The translations under genes were made by a program, and so were the position numbers. 40,878 bases of DNA from a virus (Duplodnaviria; Heunggongvirae; Uroviricota; Caudoviricetes): positions 1 to 40,878 of IMG/VR virus record IMGVR_UViG_2713896799_000014. The stretch is one strand, 5' to 3'. Positions within the stretch are counted from its first letter, which is position 1. Every line of letters starts with the position of its first letter. The notes under the pieces were generated by a model. It did no database searches and was not told the origin of the DNA. It saw only the letters and a program-made list of their open reading frames with translations. Below, piece by piece: positions 1,009 through 40,878 of the stretch.

Positions 1009-1083
1009 GTCCTCTTAGTTAAATGGATATAACGAGCCCCTCCTAAGGGCTAATTGCAGGTTCGATTCCTGCAGGGGACACCA
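1009..1083 (+). tRNA. argW: tRNA-Arg (anticodon CCU)
   Basis: 75-nt cloverleaf read by eye: acceptor GTCCTCT/AGGGGAC, anticodon loop CT-CCT-AA, T-arm GGTTCGATTCC, 3' CCA. Confidence 0.9.
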
Positions 1084-1244
1084 TTTATCAGTTCGCTCCC
1101 ATCCGTACCAGTCCGCAAAATCCCCTGAATATAAAGCCTTCCGTAGATTCACAGTTCGTAATGGTTCGCGTCAGATCGTTGACAGCCGCACTCCATGACG
1201 GGTAAAAAGTGGATAAAATAATTTTACCCACCGGATTTTTACCC

Positions 1245-2402
1245 ATGCTCACCGTTAAGCAGATTGAAGCAGCAAAGCCGAAAGAAAAACCATACCGCCT
1301 TCTCGATGGTAATGGCCTGTACCTTTATGTCCCTGTATCCGGGAAAAAGGTATGGCAGCTTCGCTACAAGATTGACGGTAAGGAGAAAATCATGACCGTC
1401 GGAAAATATCCGCTTATGACTTTGCAGGAGGCCAGGGATAAAGCATGGACTGCGAGGAAAGACATCTCGGTTGGCATCGATCCGGTAAAAGCGAAAAAGG
1501 CTTCGTCTAATAACAATTCCTTTAGTGCGATTTACAAGGAATGGTACGAGCACAAGAAGCAAGTCTGGTCTGTAGGGTATGCGACTGAACTTGCCAAAAT
1601 GTTTGATGACGACATTTTACCCATCATCGGCGGTCTTGAAATTCAGGATATTGAGCCGATGCAACTGCTGGAAGTAATCCGCAGATTTGAAGATCGCGGC
1701 GCAATGGAGCGAGCCAACAAAGCACGCAGAAGATGCGGCGAGGTTTTCCGTTACGCTATTGTCACCGGAAGGGCTAAATATAACCCGGCACCTGACCTTG
1801 CTGACGCCATGAAGGGATACCGCAAGAAGAACTTCCCGTTTCTTCCTGCAGACCAGATCCCGGAATTCAACAAAGCACTGGCAACATTTTCAGGAAGTAT
1901 CGTATCGCTCATTGCCACCAAGGTTTTACGCTACACAGCCCTAAGAACGAAAGAGCTTCGTTCCATGCAATGGAAGAACGTCGATTTTGAAAACAGGATT
2001 ATCACCATCGACGCCAATGTGATGAAGGGACGCAAAATTCATGTGGTTCCTATGTCAGACCAGGTAGTTGAACTTCTCACTACGCTAAGCTCAATCACCA
2101 AACCAGTATCAGAGTTTGTTTTTGCCGGGCGCAACGATAAGAAGAAGCCAATTTGCGAGAACGCTGTACTGCTTGTGATCAAACAAATCGGCTATGAAGG
2201 TCTGGAAAGCGGTCACGGATTCAGGCATGAATTCAGCACGATTATGAACGAGCACGAATGGCCTGCTGATGCTATTGAAGTGCAACTGGCACATGCCAAC
2301 GGCGGATCTGTGCGCGGAATTTACAACCATGCTCAGTATCTCGATAAGCGCAGAGAAATGATGCAGTGGTGGGCGGATTGGATTGATGAAAAGGTGGAGT
2401 GA
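1245..2402 (+). CDS. intS: Tyrosine integrase, P4-type (IntS-like)
   Basis: 385 aa from internal Met MLTVKQIEAAKP; transcribed away from adjacent tRNA; matches recollection of K-12 IntS. Confidence 0.9.
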   Translation: MLTVKQIEAAKPKEKPYRLLDGNGLYLYVPVSGKKVWQLRYKIDGKEKIMTVGKYPLMTLQEARDKAWTARKDISVGIDPVKAKKASSNNNSFSAIYKEWYEHKKQVWSVGYATELAKMFDDDILPIIGGLEIQDIEPMQLLEVIRRFEDRGAMERANKARRRCGEVFRYAIVTGRAKYNPAPDLADAMKGYRKKNFPFLPADQIPEFNKALATFSGSIVSLIATKVLRYTALRTKELRSMQWKNVDFENRIITIDANVMKGRKIHVVPMSDQVVELLTTLSSITKPVSEFVFAGRNDKKKPICENAVLLVIKQIGYEGLESGHGFRHEFSTIMNEHEWPADAIEVQLAHANGGSVRGIYNHAQYLDKRREMMQWWADWIDEKVE

Positions 2403-2544: not shown

Positions 2545-4503
2545 TTAACCTATTTTTGTGTAGGTCCAATTAAAAGTGCCTGTGCCCTGGCTTGTAATGG
2601 TTACAATTCTCCCTGTTGCTGAAAAACTAAGAAATGCTGCTATTTTTAACGCAACAAGAATTAGCTTATCTCCATCATACATTGCCAGTTGTGTAGATGC
2701 GTAATTTTCTCCGCTTCCAGCCCCCCATACGCTAATAATGTAAGTACCTTGCGAATCTGGTATAGAGAAAAGTGTTGTCGGAGTATTTTCAGCCACAGCA
2801 GTAGAGCCTTTACTGGTAGAGAAGCATGATGTTTGCAATCCTTCCTTAGATGTTATTTGTGAATAACCATCTACGATAAGTCCTGTTTTTTTAGGGCAGT
2901 CATACCATGATACATCACCAGTACTTAGCGTACTTAAAACAGGAGTTCCTGTAGTGGTTGCTCTGAACCGGCTATTAAAGACACTTATTTTAGCTGTGTC
3001 TATTGCATGTAACATAATGGGATACCCAGACCCAGTATATGCAACTGTGTTGTTGTCAGATAAATCATCTTCTGATGACTCAATTTTAACATCGCTGCTA
3101 CCTGACGCCCTGATGTAGGAAACTACACCAGCATCACTTGGCGCAACACTTCGCATGCTGTTCTGATGTGCAGTCAGGCCAGAAATGCCACCACTACTAT
3201 TTTCGAAATGGAATAGTGCTGCCTCTCCATAACCATCTGTAGAGATGGTGTTACCCTCCGCATCAAAACCAATAATGTTAAAACTATGTGTGTTAAGAAC
3301 ATGAACGCCAGCCCCACCAAGCGAACCTGCGTTTAACGAAATATTTGATCCATCCATGGCACAGTTAATCATTGTAGCTGCAAAGACAGAACCAAACTGA
3401 TATGGTGATATACATCCAGATGTATAACATCTTTCCATCAGAATGGTAGTGCCAGTTCCTTTTGTAAAACCATTATGGCAGTTTCTGGCCCACACATTCG
3501 TAAGTTTTGTCAAGTATGTGCCAGTCTGATCATTAAAGCATGACCATGCACCATGAACTGTACAGTTTTTAATTTCAGACATTTCCAAGCTTGTTGAATT
3601 TGGAATTGTCGAGTAGAAATTAAATGCAATTTTCCCACCATCATTTTCAGGATTCGTTGGTGTGGTTCCTGGATCATAGAAAATATAAAGACCATCAATA
3701 AAAATCTGAATCATTTTTGTCGATAGGGAATCACCTTGATCTAAAGCAAAGGCTGAAATATTACCAATAATAGACATAAATGATTGCGCTCTATTTATTG
3801 TATCAGTTCCCTCTCCAACAATCCTAACGGAGTTTTTCAGAAAAATAGTTGAATTATAGTAACCAGTTCCCTTTGGAATAAGCACTGTTTTCCCCGTGTT
3901 ACATGCGGACTGAAGCGCAGCATAATCAACAGATTGAGATAGAGATGAAACAAATGGATATACCATCTGAGCGGCTGATAGTGTTGAAAATATCTCGCTT
4001 AAAGGGTGAAGCGTTCCGTCAATTGTAGCGCCAAAATCAATAACACTTATAGCCTGTGAATTTTTAATGTGCTGTGAAATAGAAGTAGCACCAGTGTACG
4101 GTTGTTTAACTGTAACTAATGCATCCCCCATTCCATCAGCATCGCTTTCTAACTGCTGCTTAAACTGATCAGGGTCATACTTCAGCACATTAGGGAAATA
4201 GAACTGCTGCGCACCATACGCATCGTACACAGCCATAGAATGACCTTGCACAGTTACGAACTTGGCAATCTGTCCATTATATACCGGGTAACCAGCAGCG
4301 TTAATGATGATTGGTTGCGATACAGGAACGTGAGAACCGTCTTCATTCTCCACATAAACCTGAATCCGGTTTTCAGGATTTACCGGGTCAGTGTCAATTT
4401 TTCCGATATAAATTTCTCCATTGGCTACGGCTTTAAAAGAACGCGCCATAGTGAAAAGTTGCGAAGGCATCGATACGATCACATTGGCTGTAATGTCTGT
4501 CAT
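2545..4503 (-). CDS. Tailspike protein (P22 gp9-like N-terminal head-binding domain, divergent receptor-binding domain)
   Basis: N-terminus [29 protein letters not shown] matches P22 gp9 head-binding domain; remainder differs from P22 endorhamnosidase. Confidence 0.85.
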
Positions 4504-24337: not shown

Positions 24338-24413
24338 TGGTGCTGGTTAACGGACTTGAACCGCTACCCATTCGCTTACAAGGCGACTGCTCTACCATTA
24401 GAGCTAAACCAGC
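24338..24413 (-). tRNA. Phage-encoded tRNA-Thr (anticodon UGU), hand-folded
   Basis: Minus strand: 7-bp acceptor GCTGGTT/AACCAGC, D-stem GCTC/GAGC, anticodon loop CT-TGT-AA, T-loop TTCAAGT, 3' ACCA. Confidence 0.55.
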
Positions 24414-24418
24414 ATGTT

Positions 24419-24493
24419 TGGCGGGACAGCGTGGACTCGAACCACGATAAGAAGGTTAACAGCCTTCCGTAATGACCTTTATACGACTGACCC
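24419..24493 (-). tRNA. tRNA-like gene, probable tRNA-Asn (anticodon GUU), one acceptor-stem mismatch
   Basis: Minus strand: anticodon stem GAAGG/CCTTC perfect, loop CT-GTT-AA, T-arm CGTGG-TTCGAGT-CCACG, 3' GCCA; acceptor 6 of 7 pairs. Confidence 0.45.
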
Positions 24494-40452: not shown

Positions 40453-40620
40453 ATGCACTTCCGAGTCACAGGTGAATGGAATGGAGAACCATTCAACAGA
40501 GTTATCGAAGCAGAGGACATCAACGACTGCTATAACCACTGGATGATATGGGCGCAGATAGCACATGCAGACGTAACCAATATTCGAATTGAAGAACTGA
40601 AAGAACACAAAAACGCCTGA
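40453..40620 (+). CDS. Small hypothetical protein, 55 aa
   Basis: ATG with GGAGA RBS; ORF below track cut-off; weak hairpin plus T-run at its 3' end. Confidence 0.35.
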   Translation: MHFRVTGEWNGEPFNRVIEAEDINDCYNHWMIWAQIAHADVTNIRIEELKEHKNA

Positions 40621-40677
40621 TGGCGGTTTTTTATTGCCTGATTTGCAGGTTCGATTCCCTATTCGGAGATAGCACTC

Positions 40678-40878
40678 ATGCAACACGAACTACAACCTGA
40701 TTCACTGGTTGATTTGAAATTCATCATGGCCGATACTGGCTTCGGTAAGACCTTCATCTACGACCGGATTAAGTCCGGCGACCTGCCTAAAGCCAAAGTT
40801 ATCCACGGACGAGCAAGATGGTTATATCGTGACCATTGTGAATTCAAAAATAAGCTCTTAAGCCGCGCCAATGGGTAA
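40678..40878 (+). CDS. torI: Excisionase / recombination directionality factor, AlpA family (TorI-like)
   Basis: 66 aa MQHELQPDSLVDLKFIMADTGFGKTFIYDRIKSGDLPKAKVIHGRARWLYR; matches my recollection of E. coli TorI, the KplE1 excisionase. Confidence 0.85.
   Translation: MQHELQPDSLVDLKFIMADTGFGKTFIYDRIKSGDLPKAKVIHGRARWLYRDHCEFKNKLLSRANG

Follow-up and report, generated by a model that had tools for sequence, protein, structure and literature searches.

The window, that is, the whole stretch of DNA that was analyzed (40,878 bp), is an argW prophage with an IntS/TorI recombination module of the KplE1/HK620 type. At its left end, the attachment core is located at the 3' end of argW and is followed by intS in the same orientation. 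At its right end, torI, which encodes the RDF (excisionase), is the last prophage gene, and in relatives the attR core lies shortly 3' of it. The IntS protein of the window is 97.9% identical to IntS of HK620, and matches to the module were found in 3011 of 5426 complete E. coli genomes. The features at the two ends of the window are as follows:

1009–1083, plus strand: argW, gene of tRNA-Arg(CCT), the integration target (ARAGORN).
1054–1069, plus strand: source copy of the 16-mer in argW (exact-match search).
1057–1069, plus strand: CAGGTTCGATTCC, 13 nt, the putative left (B) core half-site of attB/attL, deduced from the attP dyad.
1069–1084, plus strand: attL core CTGCAGGGGACACCAT, 16 nt, published as the duplicated core of KplE1 (sequence; PMC2951348).
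1091–1178, plus strand: TorI pentamers I1–I5 of the P' arm (GTTCG at 1091, GTCCG at 1111, GTTCG at 1154, GTTCG at 1164, GATCG at 1174).
1179–1184, plus strand: −35 element TTGACA of PintS (promoter according to PMC2951348).
1200–1244, plus strand: IntS arm-type sites (GGGTAAAA at 1200, GGATAAAA at 1211, TTTTACCC at 1222 and 1237).
1245–2402, plus strand: intS, a P4-type tyrosine integrase gene (open reading frame).
40609–40632, plus strand: weak hairpin between an A-run and a T-run, bidirectional in appearance (sequence; homology breakpoints).
40634–40646, plus strand: TTGCCTGATTTGC, the 'cII protein binding' position of the HK620 record (HK620 annotation mapped onto the window).
40643–40658, plus strand: second copy of the 16-mer TTGCAGGTTCGATTCC (exact-match search).
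40646–40659, plus strand: conserved leader element CAGGTTCGATTCC(C), common to the family of argW-specific IntS/TorI modules.
40665–40668, plus strand: Shine–Dalgarno (SD) sequence GGAG of torI (sequence; conserved column block).
40678–40878, plus strand: torI (RDF/excisionase), 66 aa, 100% identical to HkaC of HK620 and gp18 of Sf6.
40873–40878, plus strand: beginning of GGGTAAAAT, the first IntS arm-type site of the P arm, which is truncated by the window end.

The identities of the pentamers I1–I5 in the window and their layout in two blocks agree with the published description (PMC2951348). Another GTTCG is located in the T-loop of argW (position 1060), 31 nt from I1, and the spacings that follow are 20, 43, 10 and 10 nt; therefore, all six pentamers lie roughly on one face of the helix. 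Judging by these spacings, the argW pentamer might be an unrecognised sixth TorI site of attL, at the edge of the published attL fragment. Its helical phase with I1–I5 could easily be a chance coincidence, for which the expectation is about 30%. In the interior of the prophage, adjacent genes of tRNA-Thr(TGT) and tRNA-Asn(GTT) were found (window 24338–24493, minus strand); the same pair has been described in the phage Kapi1, directly before the lysis module.

The sequence TTGCAGGTTCGATTCC has two exact matches in the window, at 1054–1069 and 40643–40658, both on the plus strand, and no further match with up to two mismatches was found there. The expected number of chance matches is 0.04, and none of 100 dinucleotide shuffles of the window contained two or more. 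The copy in argW spans the end of the variable loop, the 5' strand of the T-stem, the T-loop and 2 nt of the 3' strand of the T-stem. The second copy follows the hairpin at 40609–40632, the stem of which has 4 bp and falls under the 5-bp cut-off of the scan, and ends 19 nt 5' of the torI start codon (ATG at 40678). The sequence 3' of this copy is CTATTCGG / CTATTCGGAG and not a tRNA 3' end. The leader copy of the T-arm lacks an acceptor sequence and a dyad and does not form a junction with host DNA, and a tRNA gene was not found at the torI leader using ARAGORN. Note that the identical 16-mer occupies the same place before torI in KplE1 of K-12 (L002), in L011, in HK620 (L004), in Sf6 and in a further locus (L001). 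These data bear out the preliminary description, which had reported a 16-bp identity with argW beyond chance, located after a weak terminator and about 20 bp before a TorI-like gene, without the tRNA 3' acceptor sequence and different from a displaced attR core.

The window ends at the stop codon of torI. The arm-type site GGGTAAAAT overlaps this stop codon, and the rest of the site is present in L001, L002 and L004. In L001, where this stretch continues at 2994–3020, a second P-arm copy, GGGTAAAATAGCGGGTAAAAT, comes 5 nt after the first. The attR/attP core was found 75 nt past the torI stop codon in L001, in the K-12-type KplE1 (L002) and in HK620 (L004). The L001 locus is 98.8% identical to the window and its core reads CTGCAGGGGACACCA, which confirms the earlier suggestion that the true right junction is located outside the window. 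It was reported that in vitro excision proceeds with a 135-bp attR, the left primer of which, CTCTTAAGCCGCGCCAATGG, corresponds to the last 20 nt of torI (PMC3509656). The 16-mer is located approximately 200 nt to the left of this fragment (L002 2515–2530 versus a primer site at about 2727) and approximately 295 nt from the attR core. The leader 16-mer is not the crossover site, and it lies outside the attR fragment that is sufficient for in vitro excision. The preliminary description had proposed that it may be part of the attP arm; this does not hold for the experimentally defined functional arm, which begins about 200 nt further right (PMC3509656), and the published core CTGCAGGGGACACCAT does not include the 16-mer (PMC2951348), which is half of what that description had named as evidence against its reading. 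In addition, an inverted copy of the core, CCCCTGC, was observed approximately 17 nt to the left of TGCAGGGG in HK620 (L004 2452–2483). It is kept near the core in nearly every lineage, at the same position in attR and attP loci, and it may serve as an additional core-type site or as an IHF-flanking element.

Comparison with complete E. coli genomes by megablast showed that matches break at approximately 40628–40646, and the hairpin at 40609–40632 is the left boundary of the torI module, i.e., a mosaic joint. Among 79 E. coli-type loci of metagenomic and viral origin, all encoding an identical TorI, at least three different hairpins are joined to one unit composed of the T-run, TTATTGCCTGAT, the 16-mer, the SD sequence and torI. 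In E. coli BL21 (L003 2574–2780 compared with window 40453–40632), the same 55-codon ORF and terminator stand before a lambda-type xis-int pair beside ybhC, so that recombination modules have been swapped at the hairpin. Mosaic exchange of leaders was also found when L157 and L018 were compared, and the lineages are therefore not independent.

In order to evaluate the conservation of the leader, about 270 loci encoding TorI relatives were collected (63 distinct RDF proteins, identity down to 36%). The sources were Escherichia, Enterobacter, Citrobacter, Serratia, Pantoea and Edwardsiella, as well as Erwinia phages and Salmonella phages. The argW core TGCAGGGGAC was present in every one of the loci that extended far enough, which indicates that the whole family is argW-specific. 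The block (C)AGGTTCGATTCC(C) was found in more than half of the RDF variants, about 5 nt upstream of the SD sequence in most lineages and 3–12 nt overall, and all of the genera and phage groups named include carriers of it. When leaders were picked by SD class alone, 41 of 45 contained the block with no more than one mismatch, and two were visibly decayed. In the non-redundant alignment, the columns of the block are 90–100% conserved, which is similar to the SD sequence and the ATG; the 5-nt spacer is 50–70% conserved and the upstream flank 20–70%. The block persists between modules whose RDFs share only 36–49% identity, and its only common variant is the change of GATTCC to GATTTC. In the 79 E. 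coli-type loci, variants of the 16-mer were singletons only, and both flanks carried common polymorphisms.

The run of identity to argW has a median length of 12–13 nt across the variants and a maximum of 16 nt. Of 21 variants, 15 have a run that stops precisely at ...TTCC, the left border of the core; in Serratia and one Pantoea lineage the run extends two bases further right (TTCCTG). The leftward extension by three bases occurs in the E. coli type only, and only 12–13 nt of the 16-mer, CAGGTTCGATTCC, are shared across lineages. The left TTG of the E. coli-type leaders could be due to chance or be part of the annotated TTGC box. The conserved 13 nt are contiguous, have no dyad symmetry and are about as long as one recombinase half-site. 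The leader of the RDF gene contains a conserved 13-nt cis-element, CAGGTTCGATTCC, of which the 16-mer represents the version found in the E. coli lineage, and the alignment indicates that this element is under purifying selection. The preliminary description had also considered a relic of an earlier recombination event. This may fit the origin of the sequence, but not its present state, since a neutral relic would not be conserved like the SD sequence.

The block is absent from Chronis, EhrS49, Dryocola, Tatumella and several further groups, among them L113–125, and is decaying in L153, L156 and L179; because several lineages do without it, the element is accessory or dispensable. In L019 (Dryocola) and L189, the terminator and TTATTGCCTG run directly into the SD sequence, and a segment of about 27 nt with the element is precisely absent, which makes these loci useful natural deletion controls. 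In the Erwinia phage Midgardsormr38 (L007), CAGGTTCGATTCCC occurs in tandem (2156–2169 and 2172–2185) with a 16-nt period, and part of a second copy, TCGATTC, is present in Enterobacter sp. R1 (L015). No T-loop-like motif was found within 2.5 kb on either side in five distant P4-type integrase modules, namely those of Pseudomonas BR228a, Pseudomonas VW-6S, Yersinia YeP4, Klebsiella Kp4866-6 and Acidovorax Acica.

The flanks of the attP core form the dyad GATGTC-TGCAGGG-GACACC, from which we infer a putative 7-bp overlap, TGCAGGG, with a half-site on each side. The leader block is identical to argW 1057–1069 at 13 of 13 positions and ends at the core edge. By its sequence alone, the block would represent the left (B) half-site of attB (T-loop/T-stem, ...CAGGTTCGATTCC) up to this putative overlap. 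The attP region has its own degenerate T-loop beside the core, e.g., TTCGATGTA abutting TGCAGGG, so the leader copy is an additional one. These characteristics allow us to propose, tentatively and with less than even confidence, that the leader element may be a docking site for recombination proteins through which torI expression is controlled. The main candidate for binding would be the core-binding/catalytic domain of IntS, which may recognise a lone attB-type half-site, and TorI is a possible second binder via the embedded GTTCG. The preliminary description had likewise suggested an integrase or excisionase binding site, and this reading is the one favored here, since docking would account for most of the features observed: an asymmetric, contiguous run of 13 conserved nt, an identity to the attB half-site that stops at the core edge, retention with argW as the target, and a place beside the torI RBS. 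Since there is neither an overlap region nor a partner half-site, such a half-site could not recombine. The element adjoins the torI ribosome-binding site (RBS), at approximately 225 bp from the arm-type sites past the torI stop codon. Docked there, TorI and/or IntS, the latter by looping, could damp torI expression. TorI and IntS are known to repress the intS promoter, and damping of torI would mirror this. As to its origin, capture of a copy of the argW T-arm would be the simplest explanation. A narrower version is that IntS on the P-arm loops back approximately 225 bp to the lone half-site and represses or gates the RDF gene; combined with the repression of PintS, the result would be a reciprocal Int/RDF switch deciding in which direction recombination proceeds in phages with transcriptionally uncoupled int and xis. 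We consider this version unlikely.

Since the argW core is present in all relatives, the element is retained wherever the target, attB, is conserved. It is kept despite differences in the arm-type sites (GGGTAAAA versus GGGCATAA) and in the P'-arm RDF repeats. The variant GATTTC shifts the block toward the core-type consensus GRTGTC, which would be in favor of docking, and the GTTCG pentamer is the determinant that was mutated in the mapped TorI sites (PMC2951348). On the other hand, the conserved sequence is GATTCC, with no drift to the stronger GATGTC that pure Int binding would allow. The binding of IntS to attL was reported to be unchanged upon mutation of the core site (PMC2951348), which suggests that core-type binding is weak and that a lone half-site may bind poorly. 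An arm-type motif of the GGGTAAAA type with no more than one mismatch was not found from 39500 to the window end, such sites being located only around intS. The lack of an arm-type site near the leader, the low score of the leader against a TorI-site profile (−1.4 bits, see below) and the many lineages that do without the element also argue against docking.

Several other explanations were compared with the docking site. The element could be a non-functional scar: a fragment of argW would have been captured once, in an aberrant Int-mediated or illegitimate event with a break at the Int cleavage site, and would since have travelled along with the torI leader, mosaic recombination distributing it as a 'boundary sequence'. 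The exact coincidence of the homology break with the core edge is in agreement with this, as are the label of the stretch in the Sf6 record ('bsq2; boundary sequence'), the identical leaders on different RDF genes, the different terminators on the same leader, and the natural presence/absence variants (Dryocola L019, L189) and decayed copies. However, in the same leaders at least eight variants occur in the 5-nt spacer versus one polymorphic site in the 11–13-nt block. Together with the singleton-only variation of the 16-mer between commonly polymorphic flanks in the 79 E. coli-type loci and the 12-nt identity retained between modules with RDFs 36–49% identical, this makes a scar quite improbable. 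Another idea, the insertion of torI into an ancestral 31-nt block of tRNA identity, is attractive in that 1054–1069 and the core at 1069–1084 are contiguous in argW, but it is weakened by the degenerate T-loop that attP itself has beside TGCAGGG in most lineages. The element could also be a sixth site of the TorI type serving RDF autoregulation, with a likeness to the tRNA that would arise because the TorI pentamer equals the T-loop GTTCG. GTTCG, GATCG and GTCCG are the pentamers that define the mapped TorI sites, and GTTCG is present in all intact variants of the element (window 40649–40653). The argW T-loop pentamer at 1060 is in helical phase with I1–I5 (+31, +20, +43, +10, +10), although this coincidence has a chance expectation of about 30%, and Midgardsormr38 has two tandem copies. 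A TorI profile was built from 25 P'-arm sites at strictly conserved offsets from five sources (the window and four phage modules), and its consensus is AACAGTTCGCAAA. The leader 13-mer scores −1.4 bits against this profile, whereas all 25 real sites score 4.2–15.6 bits; the common part is limited to the pentamer, and in none of the real sites is GTTCG followed by an A. The leader site is also single, while TorI sites otherwise stand in phased blocks, and the conserved ATTCC half is left unexplained. In addition, the phage phiEt88 retains the motif though its P'-arm repeats are of the GATGTAAC/GCGTTAC-like type. A TorI operator is therefore improbable as well, about as much as the scar.

A further explanation is the cII-dependent integration promoter pI, in which one half of a cII box would be supplied by the TTGC at the 5' end of the 16-mer, with the other bases of the 16-mer as promoter spacer. 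The consensus of the cII box in lambda is TTGC-N6-TTGC around a −35 region, followed by a −10 hexamer. In the window, TTGCCTGATTTGC has the form TTGC-N5-TTGC, i.e., its spacing is N5 where lambda has N6, and the first 4 nt of the 16-mer make up the last TTGC of this box. The HK620 record (NC_002730) contains a 'promoter, phage integration' and a 'cII protein' feature corresponding to window 40633–40671 and 40634–40646, respectively, and the Sf6 record has the label 'pI; possible integrase expression promoter'. Nevertheless, the first TTGC varies (K-12 and many E. coli-type loci have ATTACC), both halves are absent from other lineages that retain the 13-mer, and the conserved block differs from the TTGC repeat. 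A pair of sigma-70-like hexamers was looked for in the leader on the plus and minus strands and none was found, so a sigma-70 promoter was rejected there. KplE1 keeps the element without having a cII gene, and the annotation seems to be a prediction, an experiment supporting it not having been found; a function as pI is thus very unlikely. It is somewhat less doubtful than the other alternatives to docking, but still unlikely, that the element works as RNA, in the leader of the pL read-through transcript, and tunes torI translation or the processing or stability of the mRNA. The RNA could fold into a mini T-loop, GG-UUCGAUU-CC, or the 3' half AUUYCC could pair with the SD sequence GGAGAU. The fixed place of the block 3–7 nt 5' of the SD sequence in most lineages agrees with this, as do the predicted pairing probability of the SD sequence with the motif (mean 0.61 over 54 leaders), the perfect 6-bp match of the GATTTCC variant to GGAGAU and the full hairpins of some lineages (ACAGG...CCTGT in Edwardsiella, CAGG...CCTG in Serratia). 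However, the SD sequence remains nearly as paired when the motif is shuffled (0.74 versus 0.79); the effect is thus not specific, and anti-SD pairing was rejected as a specific function. The T-stem is not maintained (median of 2 contiguous pairs in 21 variants) and ARAGORN finds nothing at the leader, so a T-arm hairpin or tRNA mimic was rejected too. The C and A at the 5' edge are conserved without conserved partners, which does not fit a hairpin, the SD sequence is 12 nt away in Serratia, and no Rfam family covers the motif.

Two sub-threshold Rfam matches were observed around the leader. STnc130 (RF02084) scored 29.5 bits against a gathering threshold of 55 bits on the minus strand at 40601–40728, over the full length of the model and in antisense orientation to the start and leader of torI; STnc420 matched the plus strand at 40581–40636. 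Both were rejected as sub-threshold and driven by the terminator; the STnc130 consensus does not contain the motif. The A-run and T-run of the hairpin possibly allow termination in both directions, which makes an antisense RNA over the torI RBS conceivable; no promoter for it was found in a scan of both strands. Small ORFs were also seen. An ATG at 40620, located in the terminator loop and forming TGATG with the TGA of the upstream gene, opens a 26-codon frame (window 40620–40700) that reads the T-arm copy as Cys-Arg(AGG)-Phe, AGG being the codon decoded by argW. In Edwardsiella, an ATG...TGA mini-ORF overlaps the xis ATG. Small leader ORFs were dropped, as neither their frame nor their presence is conserved between lineages, and for the same reason the 26-codon frame with its AGG codon is probably fortuitous.

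In this module, int and xis are transcriptionally uncoupled, and it was stated that the excision switch depends on expression from the RDF gene and that its understanding requires the study of how RDF genes are expressed (PMC2951348). The leader element bears on this acknowledged question for argW phages with the module (PMC2951348): a 13-nt sequence next to the RBS, conserved like the RBS and equal to one half of the bacterial att site, is an easily mutated candidate for RDF control. If the element binds IntS or TorI, it would directly link the recombination machinery to RDF expression, and if it binds neither, it would be a clean case of a leader element that derives from a tRNA and is under selection. 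In both cases, the practical impact is modest and limited to phage integration biology. The module itself and the predicted-promoter annotation of the region in two phage records (HK620 and Sf6) were already known. In the accessible literature, which did not include the primary mapping papers, nothing was described upstream of torI, and neither the likeness of the leader to the T-arm of the target tRNA nor its family-wide conservation was mentioned.

A comparison with known systems indicated that the module of the window corresponds to that of KplE1 (CPS-53), HK620 and Sf6 in the attL core, the TorI pentamers, the layout of arm-type sites, TorI (100%), IntS (about 98%) and the 16-mer before torI, whereas the published maps that were consulted place binding sites only in attL and the 135-bp attR. 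Like the TorI sites I1–I5 of attL, the leader contains GTTCG in the same orientation, but its flanks are off-profile (−1.4 versus at least 4.2 bits), the site is single and there is an additional conserved ATTCC. With the lambda pI it shares the position just before or at xis and a direct repeat of TTGC, which led to the pI call by the annotators of HK620 and Sf6; it differs from pI in the N5 spacing, in a box that is not conserved while the 13-mer is, and in the lack of a −10/−35 match. Its closest counterpart by sequence may be the left (B) core half-site of attB, since its 13 nt are the argW sequence that abuts the strand-exchange region and have the length of one half-site; however, the leader has no overlap region and no inverted partner and is located approximately 295 bp from the core, and it is not an att site. 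Elements that integrate into tRNA genes usually have in attP a block of identity that extends through the tRNA 3' end and adjoins the crossover. The leader resembles the partial tRNA copies of such elements in being a phage-borne tRNA-derived sequence, but it is a second and better-conserved copy, located across the RDF gene from the T-loop of attP itself.
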